Below, one piece after another: positions 24,646 to 64,000 of a stretch of DNA of 64,000 nt. The notes under the pieces are model-generated. The model was not told the origin of the DNA and made no database searches. It saw nothing but the letters and a program-made list of their open reading frames with translations. The translations under genes and the position numbers were made by a program. Origin of the DNA: Alphaproteobacteria bacterium (lineage in GTDB: Bacteria > Pseudomonadota > Alphaproteobacteria > Micavibrionales > UBA2020); the NCBI GenBank assembly GCA_025934695.1, contig JAICWS010000002.1, positions 770,230 to 834,229 of the forward strand, given 5' to 3'. Each line of letters starts with the position of its first letter. Position 1 is the first letter of the stretch.

Positions 24646-24848
24646 GGATAAAGTCCCCCCTAGTTTTAAGTATACAGTCACACCCTTTGATATTCCGTTG
24701 ATTATGCATATAATTTTATGAAAATTAAGCCTATATCATCCCTTGGAAGTCCTTGAATTTACATAAAATATTTGAATCCTTGACAGGAGAAGGTCCCGCC
24801 GCATATACAGCTACCTTGGGATTTTATGACGAGTAATGGAGATACGAC

Positions 24849-24983
24849 GTGAAACGCACCTACCAACCCAGCAAGCTGGTCCGCAAACGCCGCCATGGCT
24901 ACCGTGCCCGCATGGCCACCAAGAACGGCCAGAAAGTCGTGGCGGCGCGCCGCGCGAAGGGTCGCAAACGCCTGTCGGCCTGA
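24849..24983 (+). CDS. rpmH: 50S ribosomal protein L34 (below the ORF-track size cut-off)
   Basis: GTG start 7 nt after GGAG. Product is [44 protein letters not shown], 44 aa. Confidence 0.95.
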
Positions 24984-25318
24984 TGCTGACACTGAAGGCC
25001 TCATCCGATTTCCAGCGCATTGCGAAACAGGGCAAGAAGTGGACGGGGGCAGCCTTCATCATGCTGGGCCTTAAAACAGACAACGAGACAGCGCCGTTCC
25101 GCGTGGGCTTCACAGTCAGCCGCCGCGTCGGCAATGCTGTCGAGCGCAACCGCGCCAAGCGGCGCCTGCGCGAAATGGTCCGCCGCTTCCTGAAACACAA
25201 CAAGCCCCAGGGATTCGATATCGTGCTGATCGCCAAGGCGCAGGCGCGGGAGACGGATTTTTCCACCATATGCGCGGACTTCGAAAAGGGCATGGCCGCC
25301 CTTGCGGGCCGCAGATGA
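24983..25318 (+). CDS. rnpA: Ribonuclease P protein component
   Basis: The ATG overlaps the rpmH stop as TGATG. Motif FRVGFTVSRRVGNAVERNRAKRRLRE. The track ORF from 24836 is an artificial 5' extension. Confidence 0.9.
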   Translation: MLTLKASSDFQRIAKQGKKWTGAAFIMLGLKTDNETAPFRVGFTVSRRVGNAVERNRAKRRLREMVRRFLKHNKPQGFDIVLIAKAQARETDFSTICADFEKGMAALAGRR

Positions 25319-25596
25319 CATGGCCTTCGAAAATCCTGCTCGGGATGATCTGGCTTTACCAGCACAGCTTCTCGGCCTTTATGGGAAGACGCTGCCGCTA
25401 TTATCCGAGCTGCTCCGCCTATACGGCCGGGGCGATCCGGCGCTTCGGCGCGGCAAAGGGGGCGGCGATGGGCGTTTGGCGCATCTGCCGCTGCAATCCC
25501 TGGAGCCGCGGCGGACACGATCCGGTGCCGCAGGAATTCAGCTTGAAGTTTTTCTCTAAAAAACCGGGCTGCTGTGATAGAAATCTGGGCACTTAA
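25315..25596 (+). CDS. yidD: Membrane protein insertion efficiency factor YidD
   Basis: The ATG overlaps the rnpA stop as ATGA. Conserved YQHSFSAFMGRRCRYYPSCSAY and CNPWSRGGHDPVP. Confidence 0.9.
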   Translation: MTWPSKILLGMIWLYQHSFSAFMGRRCRYYPSCSAYTAGAIRRFGAAKGAAMGVWRICRCNPWSRGGHDPVPQEFSLKFFSKKPGCCDRNLGT

Positions 25597-25623
25597 GGGC
25601 ACGACAGAAAGAGACTGCGACAA

Positions 25624-27498: not shown

Positions 27499-27499
27499 C

Positions 27500-28132
27500 A
27501 TGCACGGCTTTGTCATCGACGATGCGGCGCTCAAATACGGCGAAAAACTTTTCCGCCAGGAATGCCGCTTCGTGGCGGGCGCCGATAATGCGGGCGCGCT
27601 GCCCCCTGACGAACTGCCCGAGATCGCTTTCGCCGGCCGCTCGAACGTCGGCAAATCCAGCCTCATCAACGCGCTGACGGGCCGCAAGGGGTTGGCGCGC
27701 GCCTCCAACACGCCGGGCCGCACGCAACAGATCAACTTCTTCGACCTCGGCGGAACGCTGCGCCTCGTCGATCTGCCGGGCTACGGCTATGCGATCGCGT
27801 CGAAGACGAAAATCGAGAAGTGGAATAATTTCATCCGCGCCTATTTGCGCGGGCGGCGCAGTCTCAAGCGCGTCTGCGTGCTGATCGACGCGCGGCGCGG
27901 CATCATGGCGGTCGACCAGGACACGATGGAGACCCTAAGCCACGCGGGGGTGCCTTATGTCGTCGTCTTCACCAAGGCCGACAAGGCGACTCCGGACGAG
28001 CTCGCCTCGCTTCAAAAGCGCATCGAGGACGAATTACGCGTGACACCCGGCGCCTATCACAAAACCTACGCGACGAGCTCGGCCGATAAAAAAGGCATCG
28101 CAGAGTTGCGTGCCATCCTCGCAGGGCTTTGA
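27500..28132 (+). CDS. engB: Ribosome biogenesis GTPase EngB/YsxC
   Basis: G1 GRSNVGKSSLINAL, G3 DLPGYG, G4 TKADK. Confidence 0.95.
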   Translation: MHGFVIDDAALKYGEKLFRQECRFVAGADNAGALPPDELPEIAFAGRSNVGKSSLINALTGRKGLARASNTPGRTQQINFFDLGGTLRLVDLPGYGYAIASKTKIEKWNNFIRAYLRGRRSLKRVCVLIDARRGIMAVDQDTMETLSHAGVPYVVVFTKADKATPDELASLQKRIEDELRVTPGAYHKTYATSSADKKGIAELRAILAGL

Positions 28133-43048: not shown

Positions 43049-43100
43049 TAAAGAATAAGCCTGAAAAGGTGTGTGTGGCTTTATTTGTCGGGGTCCAATC

Positions 43101-46100
43101 ATGAGCGAATCCAATCAGAATAATAAATTCTCCGTTGGGGCATTCCTTTTCATGCCTCAATTTAAGTACAGTTTCAGGGCGGCGGCGCACCTGTATCCCG
43201 TGTTCATCCAGCTCATCGCGACCGTTTTCGCGGCGTCGGGCCTCCTACCCAAGAACCACGAGGCCATGCGCTTCGGTTCTTCGGACGTTACGAAGAAATA
43301 CACCTTCCGCGACCTCGTCGGGGAAGCCTGGTATCACCTCCGCCGCACCCGCGCGACCCCGCGGCAGTGGGCGATGTATTTCTCCGTCCTCCTGATGATT
43401 TTCTGCTTTGCAACCGCGATCATCGGCGTCACCGGCCGCGTCTTCCTGGGCATCGGCGTTTCTGCCCAGGCGCAGCTTTTCACTCTCGGCGCGTCCAACA
43501 CCTCGATTCAGAACGGCATGTCTTCCGCTTCGTCCCTCCTCTTCGACAAGCGCATGGACCAAAGCCAGATGGGCGGTATCGGTTATAACGACTGGGGCCT
43601 GTTCATGCTCGACAAGATCGTGCGTGAATCCGCGCAGACCCCGCAGGTCGGCGGTACTCTCCAGAACGCTTTCTCCGCGATCATCCTGACCTATAACACG
43701 GCGATCACCGTTGTGGCGGCCGTGATGATCTTCTGGATCATCCTCTCCGTCGTCGTGGACACGGCCAAGACCGGCGTCCTGGGCGGCGGGCGGCATAACA
43801 TGGTCTGGGCGCCGATCCGCATCGTGTTCGCGCTCGGCCTGATGATTCCGCTCGGCTCGGCCGGTTATTCTTCGGGCCAGTATTGCGTCATGAAGCTGGC
43901 GGAATGGGGCTCGAACCTCGGCACCAACGGGTGGAACGCCTATGTGGGCGCGCTCTCGGCCAACAACGACTTCCTGGCGCCCATCATGCCGGGCGGCTCG
44001 ACGAGTCTTGTCAACGCGATCGCCGAAATGCGCCTGTGCCAGGTGGCCTATAACTCTTATGTCGTCAAGGCGACCAACCCGCCGCCGGCGCGCCAGCTTG
44101 TCGGCGCACGCAACACCTGGTCGGCCGATGGCGGCACGCTGATGCATGCGCTGACGAACGGTAACGACGCGGCGCTGTGCGGCGCTCTCAATATCGCGGC
44201 GCCTGCCGGTAACGGCGACGCGCTGATGTCGGGCACGCTCAGCAGCTGGAGCTATTCGCCAGGCGGCATGGGCACGGTGCCTCCTCGTCCCAGTGACAAT
44301 ACGAATTCGTTCCTGACGTCGCTCACGACTGCCCTGGAAGACGCCACAATCGTCGGGCTGGCCCTCGTGAACCCGATGAGCCCGCTCGGTAAAGGCTCCT
44401 CGCCCTGGATGTCCGGTTATACATTCGGCAACCCCTTTACCGCGATGGCAGGTATCGCCAGCTTCCAGGCGGCCCAGGCAACGATGCGCCAGACGATCAT
44501 CGCGAATACCCTTGGCACGCTGACAGGCACGGTCGAACCGAACATGCTGAAGTTCGCCTGCGCCTATGCTGCGCACCATGTCGTCGGCGGCACGCCGATC
44601 GTGACGGCAGCGGTTGACGTTAACCCGGTCGCGTTCACCACCATGGGCAACCTGTGCACCGGCAACCCGGATACCGACTGCGGAGCGACAGCGCTTCCGC
44701 CGCCTCCGGGTCCGGCGACGGGCGCCTACGACCCGAACTACAGCTGCCACGGCGCATCCATCGCGGCGTTCAACACGAACCTGGGCGGCGCGCTGAACGG
44801 CGCCATGACGGCTCTCCTGAGCTGGCTGACCGGCGGTAACTTCAAGTCCGAGATGCTGCAGTACGGCTGGGCAAGCGCGGGCGCGTTCTACAACAAGGTC
44901 ACGTCCATGAACGCCTCGGCGCAGGCCATGGGGCAACCCACCATTACCTATACTCCGGGCAAGCTGGGCGCGGCGATGGCGGACTGCTACAGTTCCTATT
45001 CTTCCATCGGCGACTGCCATGGCACTCACATCGACTATGAAACCGCCATGGTCATGCAGGAATATACCCGTTGGTACGAAGAATATGCAGCCACGGCGGC
45101 AGGCGCCGCCGGTCTGGGCGACGGTACGGCCAGTATCGGCCAGCAGGCCGCTCAGGCGGACAAGCCCAACGGCATGAGCATGTGGAAAATTGGCCTTGCA
45201 CTGATCAAGGGCGGTTCATCCGCAGTCGCGTCTCTCATCGAGACGTCGGTCTTCGGTCCCGACTCTCGTAACCAGCTGCTGGTCAACCTGGTGGGCAGCG
45301 TGAACGACAACACGCTTCCGCTGGCCAACCTCGCCAAGATGGGCGTCGGCATGGTCATCATGGGCGGCTCCATCATCTTCGCCTGCTCGGTTCTGCAGGG
45401 CGCGTTGGGAGCGATCCCGCTCGCCGGCACGGCCATTGCGAACAGCGCGATCTTCGCTTTCGTGACGGCGACGGCTGCGACGCTGATTTCGTCGGGCATG
45501 ATGCTGACGTTCTTCACGCCGATCATGCCTTTCATCCGGTCTGCCTTCGCGACACTGACATGGATGGTCTCCATCTTCGAGGCCGTCTGCATGGTCCCGA
45601 TCGCGGCGCTGGCGCACCTGACGACGGAAGGCGAAGGCCTTGCCGCCGGCGCGCGCCAGTGCTGGGTGCTGTGGCTGAACGTGCTGGTCAGGCCTATACT
45701 ATATGTTATGGGCTTCGTGGGCGCGTTCATCGTGTTCAACGCCTGGGTCTGCTACTTCACCACGGCGTTCGCCGCGGCCGCCGCGTCTTCCCCGATCCAG
45801 GACAACATCATCCTGCGTATCATCGCCATGTTCTTCAACTCGACGGTGTATGTGGGCACGGTATGGGCGACGGCCAACTCCTGCTTCAAGATGGTCGACA
45901 TCATCCCGAACGCCCTGATGCGCTGGATGCCGGGCGGATCGGTCGACCATAGCTTCGACGACGGCGCCCAGGCGGCCCAGGGCTATGCGCAAAGCGCGGC
46001 TTCCACCATCAGCCGCGGCTACGGCGCGGTCGCTCAGGACACCGGCTATGGCATGGGCAAGGCGGCTGGCGCGGCGACGATGACCACGACGAAGGGCGCC

Positions 46101-46286
46101 GATGGCAGCACGACCACCTCGAACTTTGCCGGCAGCGTCACACAAGCCCAGGACGGCTCGTTCCAATCAGGTACGGGCATGGCCGGAGCGGCGGCTAAGT
46201 GGGGTAATTCCAAGCAGACGGCAAGCGGCGAGAATCCCAACACCGACCAATACAACAAAACCTTCGGTGGTGGCGGCACCGGCTAA
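43101..46286 (+). CDS. DotA/TraY family-like polytopic inner-membrane protein (type IVB secretion component homologue)
   Basis: Start placed at MSESNQNN; 1061 aa. The block TAKTGVLGGGRHNMVWAPIRIVFALGLMIPLGSAGYSSGQYCVMKLAEWGS, and the C-terminal block VSIFEAVCMVPIAALAHLTTEGEGL...LNVLVRPILYVMGF, match from memory the two most conserved DotA/TraY segments. A large Gly/Ala/Thr-rich periplasmic middle region and a size of about 1000 aa also fit. Confidence 0.72.
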   Translation: MSESNQNNKFSVGAFLFMPQFKYSFRAAAHLYPVFIQLIATVFAASGLLPKNHEAMRFGSSDVTKKYTFRDLVGEAWYHLRRTRATPRQWAMYFSVLLMIFCFATAIIGVTGRVFLGIGVSAQAQLFTLGASNTSIQNGMSSASSLLFDKRMDQSQMGGIGYNDWGLFMLDKIVRESAQTPQVGGTLQNAFSAIILTYNTAITVVAAVMIFWIILSVVVDTAKTGVLGGGRHNMVWAPIRIVFALGLMIPLGSAGYSSGQYCVMKLAEWGSNLGTNGWNAYVGALSANNDFLAPIMPGGSTSLVNAIAEMRLCQVAYNSYVVKATNPPPARQLVGARNTWSADGGTLMHALTNGNDAALCGALNIAAPAGNGDALMSGTLSSWSYSPGGMGTVPPRPSDNTNSFLTSLTTALEDATIVGLALVNPMSPLGKGSSPWMSGYTFGNPFTAMAGIASFQAAQATMRQTIIANTLGTLTGTVEPNMLKFACAYAAHHVVGGTPIVTAAVDVNPVAFTTMGNLCTGNPDTDCGATALPPPPGPATGAYDPNYSCHGASIAAFNTNLGGALNGAMTALLSWLTGGNFKSEMLQYGWASAGAFYNKVTSMNASAQAMGQPTITYTPGKLGAAMADCYSSYSSIGDCHGTHIDYETAMVMQEYTRWYEEYAATAAGAAGLGDGTASIGQQAAQADKPNGMSMWKIGLALIKGGSSAVASLIETSVFGPDSRNQLLVNLVGSVNDNTLPLANLAKMGVGMVIMGGSIIFACSVLQGALGAIPLAGTAIANSAIFAFVTATAATLISSGMMLTFFTPIMPFIRSAFATLTWMVSIFEAVCMVPIAALAHLTTEGEGLAAGARQCWVLWLNVLVRPILYVMGFVGAFIVFNAWVCYFTTAFAAAAASSPIQDNIILRIIAMFFNSTVYVGTVWATANSCFKMVDIIPNALMRWMPGGSVDHSFDDGAQAAQGYAQSAASTISRGYGAVAQDTGYGMGKAAGAATMTTTKGADGSTTTSNFAGSVTQAQDGSFQSGTGMAGAAAKWGNSKQTASGENPNTDQYNKTFGGGGTG

Positions 46287-52526: not shown

Positions 52527-52546
52527 ATGCCAGCGTGCGCTGGCAT
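52527..52546 (-). terminator. Hairpin 14 nt downstream of the oxidoreductase stop (minus strand)
   Basis: ATGCCAGCG-tg-CGCTGGCAT. There is no U-tract of its own, so it may act together with the adjacent palindrome read on the minus strand. Confidence 0.4.
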
Positions 52547-52559
52547 GGCAATTAAATCT

Positions 52560-55500
52560 TTAAGCGGCCTTCTTCTGTTCCGGCGCGGCGGGGCGGCCGA
52601 ATTTTTCCAGCAGGGCGGCTTCGGCCGCCTTCGCCTTTTTCAGGTGTTCTTCCTTCACATGGCCATAGCCCCGGATATGCTCGGGGATGGAGGCGATCTC
52701 GACAGCGACCTCGTAGTTCGCGCCATTGAGGCGCGCCAGGATATCCTCCAGCGTGCGCTTGTAATCCTTGATCAGCTGGCGTTCCATGCGGCGTTCGGCG
52801 GTATAGCCGAAGATGTCGAGCGGCGTGCCGCGCAAGGACTTCATCTTGGCGAGCACCTTGAACGCCTGCAGCACCCAGGGGCCGAATTCCATCTTCTGCA
52901 GCTGCCCGGTCACGGCATCGCGCTTGGCGAGCAGGGGCGGGGCCATGTTGAAGCGCAGCTTGTAATCGCCGCCGAAAGTGTTCTTGAGCTGCGAGATGAA
53001 CTGCCCGTCGGTATAAAGACGCGCGACCTCGTATTCGTCCTTGTAGGCCATCAGCTTGTAGTAATAGCGGGCGACGGCTTCCGTGAGCTTGCCGGGGTTG
53101 CCTTTCAGCCTGATCTCGGCTTCGCGCACTGTGTCGACGAGCGCCTTATAGCGGTTCGCGTAGGCGGCGTTCTGGTAGCCGGTCAGCGACATCATGCGGC
53201 GGTCGATGATTTCCTCGAGCGAGGTCGAGATCTGGCGGTGGCGGTCGGAACCGTCGGCTGCTTTCGAGGGCGTCGCGATTTCCTGCACCTTCGCGAGGTT
53301 CCAGGCGGCTCGACGACCCCAGACGAAGGCCTGCTGGTTCATCGGGATGGAGACGCCGTTGAGCTCGATAGCCTTCATGATGGCCTCGCGCCCGACTGGC
53401 ACATAGCCAAGCTGCCAGGCATAGCCCAGCATGAACATGTTGGTCGCGATGGAATCGCCCGACAAGGCAGTCGCGATCTGGGTCGCGTCGAGCGTGGAGA
53501 GGTTGTTTTCGCCGCACAGGTTCGCGATGGCGCTCAGGACCTTGTTGGTCGGAATGTTCCAGTCCGGCTTGTGGGTGAATTCGCCGGTCTGCGCCTTATG
53601 CGTGTTCAGGATGATCTTGGTCTCACTGTCGGAACCCTTGGGACGGATTTTCGACAGGCAGTCGCCGTCCGCTGTCACCAGCATGTCCGCGCCGATGATG
53701 ACGTTCGCGCCGGCGATGCCGATGCGCACAGTGTTGATTTCGTCCGGCGTCTTCGCGAGGCGGATATGGCTCGTCACCGCGCCGCCCTTCTGGGCGAGGC
53801 CGGTCTGGTCCATGGTGGTGGCGCCCTTATTCTCGATATGCGCCGCCATGGCCAGGATCGCGCCGATGGTCACGACGCCCGTGCCACCCACGCCCGTCAC
53901 GAGGATGGCGACCGGCTTGTCGACATCGCCCATCTGCGGTTCTGGCATCGCCTTGAAGAATTCGTCCACCGCCGCGTCGGCTTTGGCCACTTCCGGCTTT
54001 TTGAGGCCGCCGCCCAGGACGGTCACGAAGCTGGGGCAGAAGCCTTTGACGCAGGAGAAATCTTTATTGCAGGTCGATTGGTCGATCTGGCGCTTGCGGC
54101 CGAATTCGGTCTCGACCGGCGCGACCGACAGGCAGTTCGATTTCTTGCCGCAGTCGCCGCAACCTTCGCAGACGCGCTCGTTGATCAGCACGCGCTTGGC
54201 GGGATCTTCCATCAGGCCGCGCTTGCGGCGGCGGCGTTTTTCGGCGGCGCAGGTCTGGTCGTAAATGAGGATCGTGACACCCGGGGTTTCGCGCAATTTG
54301 CGCTGCACTGCATCCAGACTGTCGCGATGCTCGATGGTGGTGCCGTTGGGGAAGCGCGCCGCGCCATATTTCCACGGCTCGTCCGAAACAATGTAGATCG
54401 TCTTGATGCCTTCGGCCGCCAGCTGGTCCGTCAGCATCGGCACGGTCAGCTGCCCGTCGACATGCTGGCCGCCGGTCATGGCGACGGCGTCGTTATAGAG
54501 GATTTTGTAGGTGATGTTGACGTTGGCGGCGACCGCGGCGCGGATCGCGAGCAGGCCGGAATGGAAATAGGTGCCGTCGCCCAAATTCGCGAAGACGTGT
54601 TTTTCGGTAGTGAAGGGCGACTGGCCGATCCAGGGCACGCCTTCGCCGCCCATCTGCGTGAACATGACGGTGGAACGGTCCATCCACATCGCCATGTAAT
54701 GGCAGCCGATGCCGGCGAGCGCGCGGCTGCCTTCCGGGACGACGGTCGAAGTGTTGTGCGGACAGCCCGAGCAATACCATGGCATGCGCACGACCGGCGC
54801 GGGCTTGCCTTTCAGGTCGAAATTCTTGTGGATGAGCGCCATGCGGCTCGCGAAGGCCGAGGTGTCCGTCATCGGCGCCAGGCGCTTGATCAGCGCGTCG
54901 GCGATCTGTCCCGGCGACAGTTCATATGTTTCCGGCAGCAAGGGCGCGCCTTTGTCATCCGTCTTTCCGGTGACGCGCGGGCGCTTATCGGCGGGCATAT
55001 TGAAGAGGATTTTCTTGATCTGCTCTTCGATCAATCCGCGCTTTTCCTCGACGACGAAAAGTTCTTCCACTTCACTGGCGATCTTCTGGATGCCGACCGG
55101 ATCGAGCGGCCAGACGAGCGCGATCTTGTAGACCGCGATGCCCATTTCCTCGGCGCGCTTGTTGGTGATGCCGAGGTCGTCGAGCGCTTGCATCGTATCC
55201 ATCCAGCCCTTGCCGGTTGCGACGATGCCGAGGCGCTTCTTCGCCGGATTGATGATGAAACGGTCGAGGCCATTAGCACGCGCATAGGCCTGCGCGGCGG
55301 GCAACTTGAGACGAATAAGACGATCTTCCTGCTCGACCGGCGGATCGTACCAGCGGATGTTCAGCCCTTCCTTCGGCATGTCGAAATCGGTGGGCAGCCG
55401 GAACGCGAGCGCGAAAGGATCGGTCGAGACAGAAGCGGAAGAGTCCGCGAAATCGGAAATGATCTTGAATGCCGTCCAGCAGCCCGAATAGCGCGACATG

Positions 55501-56060
55501 GCGATCCCGTGCAGGCCGAGGTTCAACGCGTCCTCGATCCCGGCGGGGTGCAGGACGGGGATCATCGCGTGGATGAAAGCATGTTCCGACTGGTGCGGGA
55601 AAGTGGAGGATTTGCAGGCATGGTCGTCGCCCGCCAGCGCCAGGACGCCGCCATGTTTCGAGGTGCCTGCGCCGTTAGCGTGCTTGAGGACGTCAACGGA
55701 ACGGTCGACGCCTGGGCCCTTGCCGTACCACATGCCGACGACGCCGTCATAGGCGGCGCCGGGACCGAGATTGAGTTGCTGGCTGCCCCAGACGGCGGTC
55801 GCGCCCAGGTCTTCGTTCACGCCGGGGACAAACTTGATGTCATGCTCTTCCAGGAACTTGCGGGCGCTTTTGAGGGCCATATCCAGTCCGCCCAAAGGGG
55901 ACCCCCGGTAACCCGAGATAAAAGTGCCCGTTTTAAGGCCTTTGGACGTGTCCAGCTGGTGCTGCATGATCGGAAGGCGCACGAGGGCCTGGAGGCCGTT
56001 CAGGTAGATCCGGCCCGCTTTTTCGGTGTATTTATCGTCGAGTGTGACTGTATCGCGCAT
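52560..56060 (-). CDS. Indolepyruvate:ferredoxin oxidoreductase family protein (fused alpha/beta)
   Basis: About 1166 aa from MRDTVTLDDKY (ATG 56060). Upstream alternatives are ATG 56126 and TTG 56132. Motifs YLNGLQALVRLP, the TPP-binding region GDGTYFHSG, and the ferredoxin-type cluster CEGCGDCGKKSNC. Confidence 0.92.
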   Translation of the reverse strand: MRDTVTLDDKYTEKAGRIYLNGLQALVRLPIMQHQLDTSKGLKTGTFISGYRGSPLGGLDMALKSARKFLEEHDIKFVPGVNEDLGATAVWGSQQLNLGPGAAYDGVVGMWYGKGPGVDRSVDVLKHANGAGTSKHGGVLALAGDDHACKSSTFPHQSEHAFIHAMIPVLHPAGIEDALNLGLHGIAMSRYSGCWTAFKIISDFADSSASVSTDPFALAFRLPTDFDMPKEGLNIRWYDPPVEQEDRLIRLKLPAAQAYARANGLDRFIINPAKKRLGIVATGKGWMDTMQALDDLGITNKRAEEMGIAVYKIALVWPLDPVGIQKIASEVEELFVVEEKRGLIEEQIKKILFNMPADKRPRVTGKTDDKGAPLLPETYELSPGQIADALIKRLAPMTDTSAFASRMALIHKNFDLKGKPAPVVRMPWYCSGCPHNTSTVVPEGSRALAGIGCHYMAMWMDRSTVMFTQMGGEGVPWIGQSPFTTEKHVFANLGDGTYFHSGLLAIRAAVAANVNITYKILYNDAVAMTGGQHVDGQLTVPMLTDQLAAEGIKTIYIVSDEPWKYGAARFPNGTTIEHRDSLDAVQRKLRETPGVTILIYDQTCAAEKRRRRKRGLMEDPAKRVLINERVCEGCGDCGKKSNCLSVAPVETEFGRKRQIDQSTCNKDFSCVKGFCPSFVTVLGGGLKKPEVAKADAAVDEFFKAMPEPQMGDVDKPVAILVTGVGGTGVVTIGAILAMAAHIENKGATTMDQTGLAQKGGAVTSHIRLAKTPDEINTVRIGIAGANVIIGADMLVTADGDCLSKIRPKGSDSETKIILNTHKAQTGEFTHKPDWNIPTNKVLSAIANLCGENNLSTLDATQIATALSGDSIATNMFMLGYAWQLGYVPVGREAIMKAIELNGVSIPMNQQAFVWGRRAAWNLAKVQEIATPSKAADGSDRHRQISTSLEEIIDRRMMSLTGYQNAAYANRYKALVDTVREAEIRLKGNPGKLTEAVARYYYKLMAYKDEYEVARLYTDGQFISQLKNTFGGDYKLRFNMAPPLLAKRDAVTGQLQKMEFGPWVLQAFKVLAKMKSLRGTPLDIFGYTAERRMERQLIKDYKRTLEDILARLNGANYEVAVEIASIPEHIRGYGHVKEEHLKKAKAAEAALLEKFGRPAAPEQKKAA

Positions 56061-56322
56061 CCCTTTTACCGCACCGTCGTTTCCCGATTCTTGGTTCAGG
56101 AGTAAGGTAGTGGGGCGAGGGCCCATAAGCAATATAATTTCGTGGCCGATTGCGATAATATTTTTTCAAATTGCCCCAATAAATCAAAGGTATGAGCCGA
56201 ATTTTTATGTTGCGGCGCACCATTTGAACTGGTTAACAAATTATTATCAGAATCGCTTGTGTTTTGACAGAAGCTTACGTAATATGTAAAACGATTGGAT
56301 AGGTAATAGAGAGAATCTGACC

Positions 56323-56625: not shown

Positions 56626-56768
56626 TGACCCCTAACATATCTTCCTTCCGGAGCGGCTTCGAAAAAGCCGGTGCCAAGCTCTTCCGCGTCGATCCGCGCA
56701 AGGCGACCAACGACGCCGCGCGTTTCTTCCTCGAGATTCTCAAGAAAATGCCCGTCGAGCAGGAGTGA
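56622..56768 (+). CDS. Hypothetical small protein, 48 aa (not in the track)
   Basis: Product is MMTPNISSFRSGFEKAGAKLFRVDPRKATNDAARFFLEILKKMPVEQE. GC3-rich. The overlapping alternative frame (track ORF start 56671) reads as a Ser/Arg/Pro-rich out-of-frame artefact. Confidence 0.4.
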   Translation: MMTPNISSFRSGFEKAGAKLFRVDPRKATNDAARFFLEILKKMPVEQE

Positions 56769-56772
56769 TCGA

Positions 56773-57708
56773 ATGGTCATTATTGACGATTTTGGCGATT
56801 ACGACAGCGCGTCCGAACGTCAAAAACGGCACGAAGCTTCGGATCGCAAGGACCGGTTCCTGATGGCCGCGGGCGCACGTCCCGCAAGCGCCCAGGACTA
56901 CCAGGCCTGGCTCGAAAGCCATCTCGATCATGGCGGCAAGATCGGAAGCGTTGAACAGCGCGCGTTCAATAGCTCCGGCACATACACGATCTCGCGCGAC
57001 GCCGAATTGCCGGCGGGGCTTTGTGGCTCTGATTCCGTACATGTCATCGTGCCCGAGGGCATTACCCTGACTACGAAAAACCGGGGTCATTGCACCGTCT
57101 ATAACATCGCGGACGGCAGTGGCGACGATTTCCGCCAGTCGGTCGTTTATCGCGAAATCCTGCCCTCAATGATCGAGCGCGGCTATGCGCTCGATCAGCT
57201 CGTCCCGCAGAAGGACTGGGAAGGCATTGTCAGCGGCGTTCTTGAAGCGAAGGTCGGCAATATGCGCAAGGCCAGCGTCGCCGATGCCGATGCGATATTG
57301 AAAGTTCTGGGTGCACTCGATCTCGCCTCCGAGGCGAAGCGCCAGCTCGGCCTCGATCCCGCGATGCAGCTGCCCGCGCCGATGCAGAAAGCGGCGGATG
57401 ATTTCAAAGACGGGCTGACCGAGAGCTACAAGGCTTTCCGCTACAAGCTCGATCCTACCAGCCAGACGCCGGGACCGTCGCTGCTCAAGCCCAAGGTCAA
57501 TCCGGCGAAACAGGCGAAACAGGCGATGCAGGTGGCGGTGCAAGCGGCGACGACGGGCGCACCGGAGAAAATCGTTGTCATGCCGCGGCTGAAATTCAAG
57601 GGCGCGGCGCAGCCACCCTCGCCGGCCCCTGCCGCCGCCGCCGCGGATACGGATTCAGCCCCAAAAAAATGGGGTTTTCGGCGGCTTCTCGGCAAGATGA
57701 TGCCCTGA
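56773..57708 (+). CDS. Hypothetical protein, 311 aa, with Pro/Ala-rich basic C-terminus
   Basis: Start placed at MVIIDDFGDYD, 4 nt after the preceding stop. No signal peptide and no known motif. C-terminus ...AAAADTDSAPKKWGFRRLLGKMMP. Confidence 0.6.
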   Translation: MVIIDDFGDYDSASERQKRHEASDRKDRFLMAAGARPASAQDYQAWLESHLDHGGKIGSVEQRAFNSSGTYTISRDAELPAGLCGSDSVHVIVPEGITLTTKNRGHCTVYNIADGSGDDFRQSVVYREILPSMIERGYALDQLVPQKDWEGIVSGVLEAKVGNMRKASVADADAILKVLGALDLASEAKRQLGLDPAMQLPAPMQKAADDFKDGLTESYKAFRYKLDPTSQTPGPSLLKPKVNPAKQAKQAMQVAVQAATTGAPEKIVVMPRLKFKGAAQPPSPAPAAAAADTDSAPKKWGFRRLLGKMMP

Positions 57709-57872
57709 CGGGTCCTCGGCTTATCCGACTGAATCCGTTACCCTTTTTCGATGTTTGTGAAAGGCGGAAACGCGCATAGGCGCAAGAATCCGCTTCCCAA
57801 CGCTGTTTTTTGCGTGTAAAAGGGCCATCTGATTGGCTTAACCTTTTAAACTTAAAGAGATATCGGAAAGGG

Positions 57873-58088
57873 GTGATTACCATCGTACAGGTTATCGTAC
57901 GCGATAATAACGTCGACCAGGCTCTGCGCGCACTCAAGAAAAAGATGCAGCGCGAAGGTCTGTTCCGCGAAATGAAGATCCGCCGCCACTATGAAAAGCC
58001 TTCTGTGAAGAAGGCGCGCGAGCGGTCTGAAGCCGTGAGACGTCATCGCAAGCTCGAGCGCAAACGCAAAGAGCGCGACGGCGATTAG
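57873..58088 (+). CDS. rpsU: 30S ribosomal protein S21
   Basis: GTG start after GGAAAGGGG. Core sequence [40 protein letters not shown]. Confidence 0.93.
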
Positions 58089-58175: not shown

Positions 58176-58847
58176 TCACTGGCCCGGATGCAGGCGGCTT
58201 TCGCATGCCTTGTAAAAGGCCGGGTTGATGTTCTGATAGGCTGCGCAGGCATCCGCCTGACCCGATGTGCCCGATGCCGCCGTCGGTGTGGGCGCGGACG
58301 CGCCGCCCTGCAGCGACTTGATCAACGCCGCCTTTTGCTCGGGCGACAGGTTCTGGATCTGCTGCGTCAGCGACGCGACCGGATCCGCCGCGGTCGCCGC
58401 CTGCGGCTGGTCCGCCATTTGCTGCTCGGTCGACTTCACGTAGGGCTGAAGCTGGTCGTGCAGCATCTGCTTCTGGTCGTTCGTGAGCATCTTGTCCCAT
58501 TGCGAACCGAAAGATCCGCTGTCGCCGCCCATTGACTTGGCCTGGTTGGTCAGCGCCTCGCGTTGCTCCGGCGACATGTTTTTGAATGTCTCGATCGCCT
58601 GTTGGAGCATGGCGTTGCGCTCCTCGGGCGACATGCCCTGAAACGCCTGCATCGCGGCGTCGGCCGGCGCCGCCGCCGCTCCACCGCCGGTGCCAGACGG
58701 TCCCGGCATTTCGGCGACGCTGTGAAAGGTTGTCGTATCCGCCCCTGGTGGCGTCGTGACGGATTGCTGCGCGAAGGCCGCGGGCGCGACAGCCAGGCCG
58801 ATGCCGAACACACAGGCGACAACCGTTTTTCCGACAATAGTTCTCAT
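58176..58847 (-). CDS. Periplasmic repeat protein with LTXXQ-like (Spy/CpxP-like) motifs
   Basis: Start at MRTIVGKT with an AGGAGG SD. Signal peptide ...APAAFAQ. Repeated MSPEER, MSPEQR, LTNDQK and LSPEQK helices. C-terminal Cys pair. The family call is tentative. Confidence 0.65.
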   Translation of the reverse strand: MRTIVGKTVVACVFGIGLAVAPAAFAQQSVTTPPGADTTTFHSVAEMPGPSGTGGGAAAAPADAAMQAFQGMSPEERNAMLQQAIETFKNMSPEQREALTNQAKSMGGDSGSFGSQWDKMLTNDQKQMLHDQLQPYVKSTEQQMADQPQAATAADPVASLTQQIQNLSPEQKAALIKSLQGGASAPTPTAASGTSGQADACAAYQNINPAFYKACESRLHPGQ

Positions 58848-58947
58848 GGGCACCTCCTGCCGTTGGCCACCCTTCAATTATACCGGAAGATTGCCTACGA
58901 AAGATAAACGAGGGCGAGAGCCTGAAAATATTCGTGAAAACAATAAG

Positions 58948-59889
58948 TTACAGATTGAATGCCGATTTCGGCCGCTTGCCACCGCCCAGCACATAGGCCT
59001 CGTCGGCCTCGCCGCCCAGGCGCTGGAATTCGGCCAGCGCCTTGCGCAGGGCTTCCTCGTTGATACGGTCGAAGCTTTCCGGGGGCGCCAAGGTCTCGGC
59101 GCCCGTCTTCAGGTTTTCGGAGACGACCGTGCGCTCGCGCGCCTCGAAATTGAAAATCTCCGTGACCTTGCGGCCGATGCCGGGATAGAGGCCATTCAGC
59201 GCGACGCGATTTTTTCCCACGAGGCTCCAGCTTTCCGACGTCTCCGCGGACGAGGGCGCGGACGCCACGGCGGGTGTGACGGCAGGCGCGGGTGAAGGCG
59301 CGCCTTTTTGTAGCAGCTTCAGCACATGCGGCTTGGCTTTCGCGAGATCAACCGCGGTCTTTCCCGCCTTGTCCGCGATGTCGGTGCGCGCGCCCGCCTT
59401 GATCAGGCAGTCGACGGTGCTCGTCATTTCCTTCTCGACCGCCCAGTGCAGCGCCGTGCGCCCGTTGGTGCGGATGATCGCATCGAGATCGGCCTGCGCC
59501 GCGATAAGCGCCTTGACGACATCGAGGTCGCCCGCGAAAGCGGCGAGATGGATCGGATAAATGTACTCGGGGCTATGCGTGTTCGGTTTCGCGCCGCCCT
59601 CGATGAGCGCCAGCGCGGCGTTCGGCTTCTTCTCGTCCATCGCGGCCATCAAGGGCGTTTGTCCCTCGCGCGACGGAATATTGGGGTCCGCCCCGAAGCC
59701 GATCAGCATCTGGATAATCCGCACATCGCCCTTTGTCGCCGCGATATGAAGCGCAGTGAGGCCTTTGTCGTCCTGGACGTCGATGCCGAACTTGCGCGGA
59801 ATGTAATAGGTGAGGCAATGCCGGATTTCGTCTGCGTCGCCCGTGCGTGCGGCATTCAGGAAGCTTTTCTTGCTGTGGAACAGGGGCAT
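58948..59889 (-). CDS. Ankyrin-repeat protein with conserved C-terminal module (array member 1)
   Basis: Start at MPLFHSKKSFLNAARTGD (ATG 59889, 2 nt after the upstream stop). ANK repeats (GLTALHIAATKGDVRIIQMLIGFGADPN...). Pro/Ala linker. C-terminal ESWSLVG...TEIFNFEARER...ENLKTGAE...LGG...KSAFNL. Confidence 0.88.
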   Translation of the reverse strand: MPLFHSKKSFLNAARTGDADEIRHCLTYYIPRKFGIDVQDDKGLTALHIAATKGDVRIIQMLIGFGADPNIPSREGQTPLMAAMDEKKPNAALALIEGGAKPNTHSPEYIYPIHLAAFAGDLDVVKALIAAQADLDAIIRTNGRTALHWAVEKEMTSTVDCLIKAGARTDIADKAGKTAVDLAKAKPHVLKLLQKGAPSPAPAVTPAVASAPSSAETSESWSLVGKNRVALNGLYPGIGRKVTEIFNFEARERTVVSENLKTGAETLAPPESFDRINEEALRKALAEFQRLGGEADEAYVLGGGKRPKSAFNL

Positions 59890-59891
59890 GC

Positions 59892-61037
59892 TTAAGGATT
59901 GCCGGCTTGCGGTTTCAGTGTTTTCTTGGCCAGGCGCGCGCCGAAGACGGCCTCGTCGTCGGCCTTGCCGCCCAGATCGCGCAAGGCACGGAGCGCCTTG
60001 TCCAGCAGCCCCTCGGGTGTCGCATCGAAAGACATGGGCTGCGTGACGGTTTCCGCCTGCGTCCGGAGGTTTTCCGAGATGGTGAAACGCTCGCGGCTTT
60101 CGAAATTGAATACTTCCGTCAGACGGCGCAGCAGCGCCGGATGGACGCTGACGCGCGCGACCTTTTCCTCGCCCATCAGCACCCAGGCTTCCGCGTCGCT
60201 CAAGGGGAGCTCGGTCGCCGTCGCATTCAGCGGCGTGGTGCGGCTCGCGATGATTTTTTTCACATGCGGCTCGATAAGCGGCACGATCGCCGCCGCGTGA
60301 TTGGACCGCCGCGCACATTCGAGCGCATCCTGGGACTGGCTGTTGAGAATATCGACGCGCGCCCCGCGGTCGATCAGCAGCTTGACGATATCCGCCTCGC
60401 CGGCGTTGATCGCGGAGTGGAGCGCCGTATTCCTGTAGTCCGCCCGCGCGTTGATATCAGCGCCTTTGTCGAGCAGCGCCTGGGCCAGGTCAAGCTGACC
60501 ATGCATTGCCGCATAATGAAGCGGACGGTATCCATTACTGGCGCGGGCATTGGGATTCGCCCCGGCGTCGATCATGTCTCCAGCCAGTTTCCATGCGCTC
60601 TTCTCAAGCGCCTTCAACAGCGGAGCACCCTTGCTCACATCGGCTTTCGCGTCGAGCAGGAGGCGGGCGATCTCCGTGTTGCTGCCGTGGCGGTTCAGCG
60701 AAAGGCTGAGAATACTTTCGTCATTCGGCATCTCGGCGTTCGGGTCCGCCCCGGCCTTGAGCAGCGCGGCGACAATCTCCTTGGCCCCATCGGGGTTGCG
60801 CAGGACGGCAAGCGCGAGCGGCGTATAGCCAAATTGGCAGGTGGCGTCGACGGGGAATCCCGCCTGGATCAGGGCTTCCACGGTTTCGGTGTGGCCTTCC
60901 TGCGCTGCCAGGTGCAACGCAGTATTTCCATCGTTGCGCGCAGCAAGGCACACCTGCGGCTCGCGCTGCAGGTACTGCCTGACGGCGTCGGTATCGCCCC
61001 GTTCGGCGGCTTTCAGGAAATTCCGCGCGGTGAACAA
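59892..61037 (-). CDS. Ankyrin-repeat protein with conserved C-terminal module (array member 2, largest)
   Basis: Probable TTG start 61037, 7 nt after GGAG, giving (M)FTARNFLKAAERGD like its paralogues. The track start 61079 is also TTG. More ANK repeats than the other members. C-terminal EAWVLMG...TEVFNFESRER...ENLRTQAE...LGG, with a divergent tail KKTLKPQAGNP. Confidence 0.85.
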   Translation of the reverse strand: MFTARNFLKAAERGDTDAVRQYLQREPQVCLAARNDGNTALHLAAQEGHTETVEALIQAGFPVDATCQFGYTPLALAVLRNPDGAKEIVAALLKAGADPNAEMPNDESILSLSLNRHGSNTEIARLLLDAKADVSKGAPLLKALEKSAWKLAGDMIDAGANPNARASNGYRPLHYAAMHGQLDLAQALLDKGADINARADYRNTALHSAINAGEADIVKLLIDRGARVDILNSQSQDALECARRSNHAAAIVPLIEPHVKKIIASRTTPLNATATELPLSDAEAWVLMGEEKVARVSVHPALLRRLTEVFNFESRERFTISENLRTQAETVTQPMSFDATPEGLLDKALRALRDLGGKADDEAVFGARLAKKTLKPQAGNP

Positions 61038-61069
61038 TGGATTGCTCCATAAATACGGTAAACTATCGC

Positions 61070-61098
61070 AATATGGCAAGTTTTTGGCACGACGTCAA
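61070..61098 (-). promoter_or_regulatory. Candidate internal promoter in the only long spacer of the ankyrin array
   Basis: The minus strand reads TTGACG, 17-nt spacer, CATATT, ending about 30 nt upstream of the TTG 61037 start. Confidence 0.3.
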
Positions 61099-61138
61099 TT
61101 CTGTAAATTTGGCCAAAAATCAGCTTGTTAGGAAACGC

Positions 61139-62065
61139 CTACAGATTGAAGGATTTCTTCGCTGCCTTGTCGGCCGGATCTCCGCCCAGTTGCCGGAAGG
61201 CGTCCGCCGCCTGCGCGACCGCGGCATCGGACAGCATGTCGAACTTTTCCGCCGGTCCCATCGTCTCCGCGCCCGTCTTGAGGTTCTCGGTGATGACGAT
61301 GCGCTCGCGGGTCGCAAAGTTGAAAACTTGGGTGATCTTGCGCGCAAGGTCCGGGTAAACGCCGACATGGGCCGCCTTGTCCTCGCCCATGCGCTTCCAG
61401 GTCTCGCTGTCGGCGCAGGCTGCCGCCGGCGCTATCGTCGCGGCAGGAGCTGGCGCTTCTTTCCGGGGCGCCTTGAGCGCCGCGTCGATCATCGCCGCGA
61501 TGCGCGGTTTATTCTGACGCGCATAAGACGCAGGCGTGACTCCATCGGTTCCGGGAATATCGGGCCGCGCGCCCGCGTCCAGCAGGAATTGAACCATGGC
61601 GCCGCGATTTGACGCGACGGCGTAATAAAGTGGCGTACGTTCTTCCGTGGTATTGACGGGATCGATTAGGGCACCGCGCGAAATGAGGTCCTTCGCGGTG
61701 TCGAGATCGCCCAGATGAGCGGCCCAATGCAGTGCATATGAATATGTCGGAGCATGCGCATTGACGTCCGCCCCCGCCGCCATCAGGACTTTCGCGGCTT
61801 CAGGCTTTCCTTCGGAGACGGCAACGAACAGCGGCGTGGCGCCGATAGTGTTGCTGGCCTCAATGTCCGCCTTCATTTCGATCAGGAAGCGGAGCGCCTC
61901 GATCCGGCCATGCTTCGCCGCCAGGTGCAGGGCCGTATTGCCTTCCTTGTCGCGGACGCTGGCCGGCAGATATTCGGGAATATAATAGTCGTAGCAATAC
62001 TTCAGCTCGGCGACATCGCCCGCGGCGGCGGCTTTGAGGAATTTCTTCTGCGGCGATCCGAACAT
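61139..62065 (-). CDS. Ankyrin-repeat protein with conserved C-terminal module (array member 3)
   Basis: N-terminal MFGSPQKKFLKAAAAGD. ANK repeats (GNTALHLAAKHGRIEALRFLIEMKADIE...). C-terminal ETWKRMG...TQVFNFATRER...ENLKTGAE...LGG...KKSFNL. Confidence 0.88.
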   Translation of the reverse strand: MFGSPQKKFLKAAAAGDVAELKYCYDYYIPEYLPASVRDKEGNTALHLAAKHGRIEALRFLIEMKADIEASNTIGATPLFVAVSEGKPEAAKVLMAAGADVNAHAPTYSYALHWAAHLGDLDTAKDLISRGALIDPVNTTEERTPLYYAVASNRGAMVQFLLDAGARPDIPGTDGVTPASYARQNKPRIAAMIDAALKAPRKEAPAPAATIAPAAACADSETWKRMGEDKAAHVGVYPDLARKITQVFNFATRERIVITENLKTGAETMGPAEKFDMLSDAAVAQAADAFRQLGGDPADKAAKKSFNL

Positions 62066-62077
62066 GACGTCCTGCGC

Positions 62078-63025
62078 TTAAAGGTTGAAGGCTTTTTTGG
62101 CGCCCTTGTCGGGCTGCTCGCCGCCCAGCGACTTCAGCTTCTCGGCCGCCCGCGCGAGAATGTCGGGGGAAAGGGCGTCGAACTTTTCGGGCGGCGTCAT
62201 GGTCTCGGCCGCGGTCTTCAGGTTCTCGGTGATGACCGTGCGTTCGCCCGCGGTGAAATTGAAGATCTCGGTCAGCTTGCGGGAAATGGGCGGATAGACG
62301 TTGACATGCGCAAGCGTGTCCGGGGCCAGCAGCATCCAGCTCTCGCCCGCGACGATCGGCTCGTTTGCGGGCGCTTGTGCGGCTGCGGGCTGCGAGACCG
62401 GCACCGGCGCATGCATGCCGCGTTTCTGGGCCGCTTCGATCATTTCCTGCAGCGCCTTGCTACCGATCGCCTTCGCGCGGTCCCAGGCGACGTAATTGTT
62501 GCTGTCCTTCATGTCCGTGCGCGCCCCCTGGTCGAGCAGGAACTGCGCTTCGGGGTTGCGGCGGTTTTCGACCGCCATGTGCAGCGGCGTCTGGAGATAG
62601 CTGCGCGTCACCACGTTGAGGTCCGCGCCCGCGCCCGCCAGCGCCTTGACGGCATCGAGATCGCCGTTGCGCGCCGCCCAGTGCAGCGGATAATAATAGT
62701 CGTTGTCGTGCGCGCTGACGTTCGCGCCCGCCGCGACGAGAAGCTTCGTGGCCTCCGTGCAGCGGTTGTAGCAGGCCCACCACAGGGCGGTGCGTCCCGA
62801 ACTGTCGGCGATTTCCAGGTCGGCCTTCTTCGCGATCAGGATCTTCAGCGTGTCGACCGCGCCCGCCTTGGCCGCGAGGATCAGCGCCGTGCGGCCCGCG
62901 CCGCCGCGCACGTTGATGTCGTATTGCGAAGGAATGTCCTGCGACAGGCAGCGGTTGAGCTCGGCCACATCGCCGCCTGAGGCGGCATTGAGGAATTTTT
63001 TCTGCGGTGAGGATCCGAACATCAT
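62078..63025 (-). CDS. Ankyrin-repeat protein with conserved C-terminal module (array member 4)
   Basis: N-terminal MMFGSSPQKKFLNAASGGD. ANK repeats. C-terminal ESWMLLA...TEIFNFTAGER...ENLKTAAE...LGG...KKAFNL. Confidence 0.88.
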   Translation of the reverse strand: MMFGSSPQKKFLNAASGGDVAELNRCLSQDIPSQYDINVRGGAGRTALILAAKAGAVDTLKILIAKKADLEIADSSGRTALWWACYNRCTEATKLLVAAGANVSAHDNDYYYPLHWAARNGDLDAVKALAGAGADLNVVTRSYLQTPLHMAVENRRNPEAQFLLDQGARTDMKDSNNYVAWDRAKAIGSKALQEMIEAAQKRGMHAPVPVSQPAAAQAPANEPIVAGESWMLLAPDTLAHVNVYPPISRKLTEIFNFTAGERTVITENLKTAAETMTPPEKFDALSPDILARAAEKLKSLGGEQPDKGAKKAFNL

Positions 63026-63031
63026 TGCACC

Positions 63032-63940
63032 TTAAAGGTTAAAAGCTTTCTTCTGGCCGCGCTCGGGAGGCTGGCCGCCCAGGCTTTTCAGCCGGTCTTC
63101 GGCGCGTCCCACCACCTCCTCGCCCAGAGTTTCGAATTTTTCGGGCTGCGCCAGGCTTTCCGCGCCGGTCTTCAGGTTTTCTGCGATGATGACGCGCTCG
63201 CGGTTCTCGAAATTGAAGATCTCGGTGATCCGGCGGCCCATCGATGGATAGTCGGCGATATGCGCCACGCGCGCCGCGCCCATGAGCTTCCAGCTATCGC
63301 CATCTTCCGCCGGAGAAGTTTCGGCTTGCGGCGCTTTCTGTTTCGCGGCGGCGGTGATGATATTCAGGAGGCGGTCGGTTCTCTTGTCGCGCGCATGGTC
63401 GGCAGGCGTCTTGTTGTCGCGGTCGGCGATATCAGTGCGCGCGTGGCTCGCCATCAGGAATTCGACGACCGGCCCGTGGCCGTTGATGACCGCCCAATGG
63501 AGGGCGGTGCGGCCGGTTTCCTTGCTGACGGCATTCAGGTCGGCGCCCGCTGAAACAAGGTCTTTGACGACATCGAGCTGGCCGTAGCGCGCGGCGGTCA
63601 GCAGCGGCGAGACATAGCTGGTCGTATGCGTGTTGACGTCGGCGCCCGACGCGATCAGGAAACGCGCCACGGCGGTCTTGTCGTTGGTGATGGCGATGTG
63701 CAGCGGTGTCTTGCCGTCGCCGTCGGAGATGTTCAGGTCGGCCTTCGCTTCGACCAGCGCTTTGACCGCGTCAAGCTGGCCGCTTTCGGCCGCCAGATAC
63801 AAAGCCGTTTTACCGCTGCCGTTTTTGACGTCGACGCTGAAGTTGCCCGGAACCAGGGCGGAAAGGCAATATAGCAGCTCCGCCATGTCGCCTTTCGCCG
63901 CGGCCTTCAGAAAGGATTTTTTCGAGCTGATGAAAGCCAT
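63032..63940 (-). CDS. Ankyrin-repeat protein with conserved C-terminal module (array member 5)
   Basis: N-terminal MAFISSKKSFLKAAAKGD. ANK repeats (GKTALYLAAESGQLDAVKALVEAKADLN...). C-terminal DSWKLMG...TEIFNFENRER...ENLKTGAE...LGG...KKAFNL. Confidence 0.88.
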   Translation of the reverse strand: MAFISSKKSFLKAAAKGDMAELLYCLSALVPGNFSVDVKNGSGKTALYLAAESGQLDAVKALVEAKADLNISDGDGKTPLHIAITNDKTAVARFLIASGADVNTHTTSYVSPLLTAARYGQLDVVKDLVSAGADLNAVSKETGRTALHWAVINGHGPVVEFLMASHARTDIADRDNKTPADHARDKRTDRLLNIITAAAKQKAPQAETSPAEDGDSWKLMGAARVAHIADYPSMGRRITEIFNFENRERVIIAENLKTGAESLAQPEKFETLGEEVVGRAEDRLKSLGGQPPERGQKKAFNL

Positions 63941-63954
63941 TTACGATCGGTCCT

Positions 63955-64000
63955 TCAGAGATTGAATGTTTTCTTCGGCGCGTCGCCGCCGCCGCCCAGG
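63955..64000 (-). CDS. 3' end of a sixth array member (rest lies right of the window)
   Basis: The minus strand reads ...LGGGGDAPKKTFNL-stop (TGA at 63955-63957). This is the same LGG...KK-x-FNL ending as members 1, 3, 4 and 5. Confidence 0.6.
   Translation of the reverse strand, partial: LGGGGDAPKKTFNL

Follow-up and report, generated by a model that had tools for sequence, protein, structure and literature searches.

The DNA window analysed here, 64,000 nucleotides from an alphaproteobacterium of the Micavibrionales (contig JAICWS010000002.1), carries at its end a head-to-tail array of ankyrin-repeat genes on the reverse strand (58948-64000), with five complete genes among the listed open reading frames (ORFs) and one gene that is cut off. 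The array proteins share a layout in which ankyrin repeats and a Pro/Ala/Ser-rich linker are followed by a conserved module, some 78 residues long, and then by a basic tail. The locus raises the question of what this C-terminal module is and what it may do at the end of so many ankyrin proteins. In the current analysis the module has been identified as a new domain family, by its sequence and by its predicted fold; the association of ankyrin repeats with a small constant C-terminal domain is a known design.

The module and its tail in the array proteins

The genes of the array and the parts of member 5, which holds the interval flagged in the initial annotation, are given below.

58948-59889, reverse strand: array member 1, 313 residues counted from MPLFHSKKSF; module at 58948-59235; long-form tail
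59892-61079, reverse strand: array member 2, 395 residues with extra ankyrin repeats; module at 59892-60191; long-form tail (...GGKADDEAVFGARLAKKTLKPQAGNP)
61139-62065, reverse strand: array member 3, 308 residues; module at 61139-61405; ends KKSFNL; equals P0158
62078-63025, reverse strand: array member 4, 315 residues; module at 62078-62344; ends KKAFNL; P0018 matches from the second Met
63032-63940, reverse strand: array member 5, 302 residues; matched by the module profile with E = 1.7e-45; identical to P0017
63371-63913, reverse strand: ankyrin domain of member 5, about residues 10-190, with matches to Pfam Ank, Ank_2, Ank_4 and Ank_5
63302-63370, reverse strand: linker of member 5, about residues 191-213, read from the sequence as rich in Ala, Pro, Gln and Glu
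63074-63301, reverse strand: folded core of the module of member 5, residues 214-289, modelled by AlphaFold2 as strands b1-b4, a shorter b5 and a single helix up to LGG
63035-63073, reverse strand: basic tail of member 5 (QPPERGQKKAFNL), with a model confidence (pLDDT) below 60; stop codon at 63032-63034
63955-64000, reverse strand: 3' end of the sixth array member, cut by the window end; 63955-63999 translates to LGGGGDAPKKTFNL and a stop

The Ank_2 family of Pfam is matched in the N-terminal two thirds of all five complete members (E = 1e-26 to 1e-37), and the models of the Pfam clan Ank (Ank, Ank_2, Ank_4 and Ank_5) are confined to this N-terminal part and do not include the module. For member 5 the Ank_2 match (E = 2e-31) extends over residues 13-162 and the ankyrin-type matches of PADLOC are limited to residues 26-189. 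The linkers of the five members are composed to 52-70% of P, A, S, T, G, E or Q. The folded core of member 5 carries W217, T239, F242-N243-F244, R247-E248-R249, E254-N255-L256, E261, F269 and G288-G289.

Between the invariant Trp and LGG the alignment of the five modules is gapless, and 23 of 92 columns are invariant among them. The positions initially proposed for the conserved motifs, with Trp at 3, FNF at 28-30, ENL(K/R)T at 40-44 and LGG at 73-75 and no insertion or deletion, are exact in these alignments when counted from residue 215 of member 5 (nt 63298), where the module begins; the corresponding residues are W217, F242-N243-F244, E254-N255-L256-K-T258 and L287-G288-G289. The coordinates proposed for the five modules also agree with our mapping. 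The copies in the array share 44-53% identity in protein and 65-71% in DNA over 155 nt, and with so low a DNA identity they must stem from old duplications; a recent repeat and an assembly artefact are excluded.

The ending KK-x-FNL, which had been attributed to all the members, does not hold for the first two, as member 2 ends with KKTLKPQAGNP (...LAKKTLKPQAGNP) and member 1 with KRPKSAFNL. A rough count by pattern places the FNL-type ending in about 25 of 190 family tails, a minority, and a long-form tail with the pattern LGG-(K/E)-A-D-(D/E)-x-x-V-(F/L)-...-K-K-x-L-K-P in 68 of the 190. Members 1 and 2 keep the long form, relative to which members 3-5 have a deletion of 7 residues. A PDZ-type ligand (Phi-x-Phi-COOH) has been considered for the tail and rejected, as it fits only the endings FNL, FTL and LKI. 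Since many members, including member 2, run past the motif (KKxLKP plus 2-6 residues), the free carboxylate is not conserved.

The intergenic gaps in the array are of 2, 59, 12, 6 and 14 nt and no terminator-like site has been found between the genes, on account of which the array is probably one operon. The listed ORF of member 1 continues to 60318, and its N-terminal extension, which overlaps member 2, is probably not translated. With the listed TTG start, member 2 would have about 12 extra residues (MPYCDSLPYLWS) before the N-terminal motif of the family (NPLFTARNFLKAA), and its true start codon is uncertain. The N-terminus of the family (63911-63940 of the window and the equivalent regions) is itself conserved as M-[AP]-[FLM]-[FI]-x-[ST]-x-x-x-F-[LF]-x-A-A-x-x-G-D, and in 61 of 114 members there are exactly 9 residues in front of the first ankyrin cap motif. 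This N-terminus may have a function of its own or be no more than the N-cap.

None of the five complete members has a signal peptide, a transmembrane or hydrophobic segment or an RTX repeat; they contain zero GGxGxD motifs and have pI values of 5.9-7.8. The lack of a signal peptide indicates that the proteins are made in the cytoplasm and, with no Sec signal, any export would have to proceed in one step.

Searches for a known family

The suggestion that the module is not assignable to any named domain has been borne out in Pfam-A (2025 copy), NCBIfam 20, PADLOC, the sequences of the PDB and Foldseek searches of PDB and BFVD. Scans of the isolated modules against Pfam at E<=10 yielded nothing above noise (E>=0.037, with scores under the cut-offs), and in 141 full-length members no Pfam family covers the module. 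The matches in NCBIfam and PADLOC are confined to the ankyrin region and lie far under the curated cut-offs, and two profile searches of the PDB sequences at E<=10 returned nothing meaningful. A PilZ-like domain binding c-di-GMP has been rejected, there being no RxxxR...D/NxSxxG motif and no Pfam match. Where these proteins have been named in databases, they are referred to as 'hypothetical protein' or 'ankyrin repeat domain-containing protein'.

The module has also not been found in plasmids and phages by tblastn or in IMG/VR by a pattern scan. A mobile or phage origin has therefore been rejected, the array being situated, moreover, at a conserved chromosomal site described below.

Predicted fold

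AlphaFold2 models built from two alignments and for two members have the same core, with pLDDT of about 95 and a predicted template modelling score (pTM) of 0.75-0.76. Four predicted strands occupy residues 4-11, 14-21, 26-33 and 38-45; a short one follows at 51-53, and a helix spanning 64-76 closes with LGG. The models thus predict, with confidence, an antiparallel β-meander of four long strands and a short one, packed on a single C-terminal helix. The short-form tail is predicted to be disordered (pLDDT below 60), and the long-form tail is modelled as a low-confidence helix over residues 83-94 (pLDDT 50-80). The earlier description, a folded domain with a short basic tail behind it, is borne out by these models, in which a confident core precedes a disordered tail that is net positive in 93% of 190 members.

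Foldseek searches, made twice against PDB and once against BFVD, gave no match at E<=1e-3; the best E-values were 0.08 in PDB and 0.03 in BFVD and the top TM-score was 0.54. The confidently predicted fold thus has no significant counterpart among the solved structures and viral models, and it is in this sense only that it can be called a fold with no known relative. C1QBP/p32, the substrate-binding domain of DnaK, ExsC, BRICHOS, monellin and bradavidin have been considered as fold relatives and rejected (all E>=0.08, TM<=0.45).

Distribution and conservation of the family

A search of 1.84 billion cluster representatives (clusters at 50% identity) with a profile built from the five modules retrieved 550 representatives at E<=1e-3 and 221 at E<=1e-10, including unrelated metagenomic proteins with E-values down to 1e-40. 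The module is thus a real family extending well beyond one genome. It is C-terminal in each of the 150 representatives listed and in all 193 family sequences that have been mapped, with at most 23 residues after the profile match in the latter, and ankyrin repeats are present in 130 of 141 scanned representatives.

Conservation of the module exceeds that of the ankyrin part in 417 of 424 comparisons (mean identity 48% against 33%). Position conservation computed over 187 non-redundant modules is highest for W7 and F32 (100%), F34 (98%), N33 and F59 (97%), T29 (96%) and A70 (94%), followed by G78-G79 (about 90%), E51 (86%), R37, E38 and R39 (about 85%), E44, N45 and L46 (81-89%) and D60 (76%). 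The near-invariant positions are for the most part polar or aromatic. Many of the conserved residues are polar and lie on adjacent strands, which suggests a conserved interaction surface and not packing alone; a conserved binding surface on the module is therefore plausible.

The charge of the two parts is also conserved. The core has a negative net charge in 91% of members (mean -2.5), and that of the tail is positive, with a mean of +2.2. The tails vary from 5 to 42 residues across the family and contain 13.7% K, 7.5% R, 9.5% L, 8.6% P and 7.8% G, with K and R together making up 21% and D and E 10%.

Ankyrin repeats are missing altogether from one subfamily (P0192-P0198, P0147, P0056 and P0109), whose proteins are about 190 residues long and consist of two tandem modules, as exemplified by L038:1673-2287. 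The N-terminal copy is degenerate and the second is a canonical copy with a basic tail (hhalign of A6 against A5: probability 83%, E = 9e-6). The occurrence of two-module proteins without ankyrin repeats suggests that the module works as a unit of its own, with a role that does not require ankyrin cargo. The start of the two-module gene is overlapped by 8 nt, in both L038 and L039, by the end of another ORF; the ORF of L038 encodes 266 residues similar to Cadherin_4/Big_9, with no signal peptide, and its counterpart in L039 is cut by the contig end.

The proteins P0010-P0012, of 79 residues, have been considered as genuine 'module-only' proteins and rejected. P0010 is probably a fragment, as it comes from a contig of 849 bp and falls into a cluster at >=90% identity with the 322-residue P0159; P0011 and P0012 lie on contigs of only 1-1.4 kb.

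Another subclass, of about 270 residues, has been observed in L004, L013, L014, L017 and L018 (module at about 10001-10258). Its members start with MMFDNLRNKWR... and have a degenerate, ankyrin-like helical N-terminal part. In L004, L013, L014 and L017 this subclass adjoins genes that, judged by sequence, are polyhydroxyalkanoate-like (PhaC-, PhaR- and reductase-like) and is not at the chromosomal site of the array.

A conserved chromosomal site in Micavibrio-like genomes

A scan of one genome per species has identified 33 loci, nearly all of them in metagenome-assembled genomes (MAGs) labelled Alphaproteobacteria, Micavibrio sp. or 'Bdellovibrionales'; these assignments are those of the record labels and not of a phylogeny, and NCBI files Micavibrio under Bdellovibrionales. 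The domain is confined to this one lineage. About 20 Micavibrio-like MAGs encode ankyrin-module genes at the same chromosomal site, which is bounded on one side by PGM, an FtsJ-like gene and pepP (M24 peptidase) and on the other by rpsU, an indolepyruvate:ferredoxin oxidoreductase-like gene (IOR) and an oligopeptide ABC transporter. The number of copies at this site is 1-5 elsewhere and at least 6 here, the most seen. As the IOR protein of the window is 70-82% identical to those of the MAGs, the DNA comes, going by the record labels, from a Micavibrio-like alphaproteobacterium. The two markers of the site in the window are as follows.

57810-58088, forward strand: rpsU (ribosomal protein S21), 85-99% identical to the S21 beside the array in related loci
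52560-56132, reverse strand: IOR, 1190 residues; shares 70-82% identity with the POR/DUF6537 gene beside the array in 16 related loci

No secretion genes have been found in the window or beside the array in the approximately 20 syntenic loci, and no VirB/VirD4 type IV genes in the window or in the 20-kb flanks of related loci. A conserved neighbour of 249 residues has been considered as the partner of the module and rejected, as it lies beside the array in only 10 loci and is not obligate. In these loci the gene of this neighbour, a protein of about 250 residues without a Pfam match, is transcribed divergently from the upstream end of the array (L001:8305-9054 and L034:7889-8656, both on the reverse strand, and 8 others); the present window ends before the position of this gene.

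A search of the literature found no paper that links Micavibrio with ankyrin proteins of this kind, and the supplements on strain ARL-13 do not mention ankyrin.

A proposed constant docking handle on variable binders

We tentatively favour, at somewhat less than an even chance of its being right, the proposal that the module is a constant handle for docking onto a partner or for self-association, carried by fast-evolving ankyrin binders that act inside the producer cell. The combination of a constant handle and a variable binder is drawn from the higher conservation of the module over the ankyrin part, from the 70-82% identity of the flanking IOR gene between the same genomes and from the variation in copy number. 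Docking or self-association, and action within the producer cell, are what we infer for this domain.

According to this proposal, a conserved polar and aromatic patch of the sheet, putatively formed by W7, T29, F32-N33-F34, R37-E38-R39, E44-N45 and E51 with F59-D60, would dock either onto a single conserved partner or onto another copy of the module, and the acidic core and the basic tail would add electrostatic contacts. The flexible Pro/Ala linker would let the variable ankyrin domain capture different client proteins. The paralogues would in this way act together as adaptors through which different clients reach a single shared site in the producer cell.

Similar designs have been described in other systems. 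The ANK-PRANC proteins of poxviruses, Wolbachia and Rickettsia also combine variable ankyrin repeats with a small constant C-terminal docking domain and form large paralogue families; PRANC is an F-box-like domain that binds SKP1. It differs from the present module in being helical and in having a Pfam model, which finds no match here, and its hosts are viruses and endosymbionts of eukaryotes in contrast to free-living or predatory Alphaproteobacteria. Adaptors of the SspB type consist of a substrate-binding domain, a flexible linker and a short C-terminal docking tail. The array proteins would resemble them only in the proposed logic of a client-binding domain, a flexible linker and a short docking peptide of basic and hydrophobic residues; SspB has no similarity to the module in sequence or fold, and there is no evidence for a protease partner.

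The two-module proteins are of particular relevance to self-association, as a tandem pair of domains in one chain often stands in for a homodimer. The pseudo-dimer argument, however, is drawn from a single subfamily, for which the hhalign probability is only 83%, over 48 columns. Several other points weigh against the docking proposal. The gene neighbourhoods give no functional clue. The strict C-terminal position and the basic disordered tail are also what would be expected of a one-step secretion signal, expansions of ankyrin-repeat proteins in bacteria are classically secreted effectors, and the lineage is labelled an obligate contact-dependent predator.

Possible export of the ankyrin proteins

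The alternative that follows from these points, and which had been put forward in the initial annotation as a translocation domain, is that the folded module and the basic tail make up a bipartite C-terminal export signal, by which a coupling protein or another machine would deliver the ankyrin proteins into prey or host cells. We consider it unlikely. It is in agreement with the location of the module at the extreme C-terminus in all mapped sequences, with the disordered and net positive tail, with the variable, fast-evolving ankyrin part and varying copy number, and with the absence of a Sec signal, which leaves one-step export only. It also draws on the host genomes, labelled Micavibrio, Micavibrio-like or 'Bdellovibrionales', as Micavibrio are epibiotic predators with a delivery route that is not known (PMC3189940; PMC12428579). 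A doubtful extension of this alternative is that module and tail are the signal of an undescribed contact-dependent route by which Micavibrio-like epibiotic predators inject diversifying ankyrin proteins into their prey.

Positive evidence for a translocation signal has not emerged from the analysis, and the module is unlike the known signal domains. The effectors of Bartonella (Bep) resemble the array proteins in having at the extreme C-terminus a folded domain of about 80-100 residues and a disordered net positive tail, a variable N-terminal part and tandem paralogues. Of the proposed resemblance to the BID domain with its positive tail, the net positive unstructured tail has been retained and the helical fold has not: BID is all-helical and of about 100-140 residues, whereas the module is a β-meander with five strands and one core helix and has no match to it in sequence or fold.

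If the module proteins were effectors of a predator, XVIPCD of the Xanthomonadales (X-Tfes) would be the natural analogue, being a conserved C-terminal domain on diverse proteins of contact-killing bacteria. XVIPCD is of about 120 residues with a Gln-rich tail, and a solved XVIPCD structure is available in PDB. Neither it nor any other signal domain of PDB appears in the PDB-sequence profile searches at E<=10 or among the top Foldseek matches, and the tails of the module are rich in K, R, P and G.

The ankyrin effectors of the Dot/Icm systems of Legionella and Coxiella (AnkX, AnkY) share with the array proteins the ankyrin repeats, to which the NCBIfam models AnkY, AnkH and AnkX match with 98 bits against a cut-off of 600, in the repeats only. 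A hydrophobic residue at -3 (F-N-L) in members 1, 3, 4 and 5 and the partial sixth is a further likeness. The resemblance to Dot/Icm C-terminal signals that had been proposed is nevertheless not upheld, since those signals are the unstructured last 20-35 residues, often with an acidic E-block, and here a folded domain precedes a basic tail.

A sorting signal like the type IX C-terminal domain or PEP-CTERM is not indicated either, as the proteins have no signal peptide and the sorting-domain models of NCBIfam, those of the type IX system included, give no match at E<=1. The five members do not resemble type I (RTX) substrates, the passengers being ankyrin repeats, which fold fast and are poor substrates for type I secretion.

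The absence of secretion genes in the window and beside the array in about 20 genomes, and of the module itself from plasmids, phages and IMG/VR, also argues against export. The genome paper of M. aeruginosavorus ARL-13, a cultured relative, reports type I and II systems and no type III or IV (PMC3189940). The two-module proteins carry no cargo, and a module-only protein is difficult to reconcile with a module that serves solely as an export tag. If export were nonetheless true, the module would represent a novel kind of folded translocation domain at the C-terminus and offer a way to find the machine.

Possible membrane attachment or activity of the module

It had been suggested as a fallback that the module binds a partner or a membrane. 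Partner binding, as in the docking proposal, fits the data better than translocation does, and membrane binding has gained no support from the hydrophobic-moment test of the tails. In the latter case, which is quite improbable, the basic tail, aided by dimerisation of the module, would attach to anionic phospholipids and so hold the ankyrin domains at the inner face of the cytoplasmic membrane as a peripheral anchor of the MinD type. The K/R-rich tail with interspersed L and F, the weak helix predicted in the long-form tail and the conserved dipole of acidic core and basic tail are in its favour. The maximum helical moment of the tails is, however, 0.469 against 0.453 for shuffled tails and reaches p<0.05 in only 7% of them; individual long-form tails have a higher moment, such as 0.66 against 0.41. 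For an amphipathic membrane helix in the tail there is thus no signal across the family as a whole. The richness of the tails in Pro and Gly, the variation in their length and the lack of a hydrophobic segment are also unfavourable to an anchor.

Least probable of all is that the module itself is active as a small domain that binds a ligand, nucleic acid or nucleotide or acts as an enzyme, with the ankyrin repeats serving only to target or regulate it. The clustering of near-invariant charged and polar residues on two adjacent strands (T-E-I-F-N-F, R-E-R and E-N-L) is typical of a ligand-binding or active site, and module-only proteins do exist; against this, no similarity to an enzyme or binding fold has been found in PDB or BFVD, 78 residues are few for an enzyme and an acidic core is not what would be expected if the core itself bound nucleic acid. 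A toxin domain of the polymorphic-toxin kind has been rejected, as the six tandem copies have no interleaved immunity or antitoxin genes, match no toxin family and lie in a housekeeping context.

Other features of the window

The rest of the window is ordinary chromosome, with alaS, a Kup transporter, histidine kinases, YidC and an aa3 cytochrome oxidase cluster; threonine synthase, DHODH, an EAL protein and Opp are also encoded. Further ORFs have been noted as follows.

56671-57708, forward strand: lineage-specific gene of 345 residues between IOR/rpsU and the array, no Pfam match
58176-58877, reverse strand: lineage-specific gene of 233 residues, with an N-terminal hydrophobic segment like a signal peptide, repeated MSPEQR/LSPEQK motifs and a weak match to DUF3106
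43071-46286, forward strand: ORF of 1071 residues, no Pfam match at E<=1e-4
24811-27735, reverse strand: ORF of 974 residues antisense to yidC (25624-27498, forward strand), no Pfam match
52527-56105, forward strand: ORF opposite the IOR gene

In the syntenic locus L034 a zeta-toxin-like kinase occupies the place of the two lineage-specific genes. The ORF at 43071-46286 is probably a real gene because of its high GC content at third codon positions (0.82). Those antisense to yidC and opposite IOR are almost certainly high-GC shadow ORFs.

Significance of the module

At the least, the module is a confidently folded domain family that is missing from the curated libraries and deserves an entry in them. 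At most it could belong to a new effector-recognition system, which would be important only if the ankyrin proteins are exported. If the module is a handle for docking or for delivery, it marks an ankyrin family of 550 clusters in an order of obligate predators whose mechanism of prey exploitation is little known. It would then serve as a sequence tag for pulling out the partner, be it a machine, a membrane site or the module itself, and for listing the client-binding paralogues genome by genome.

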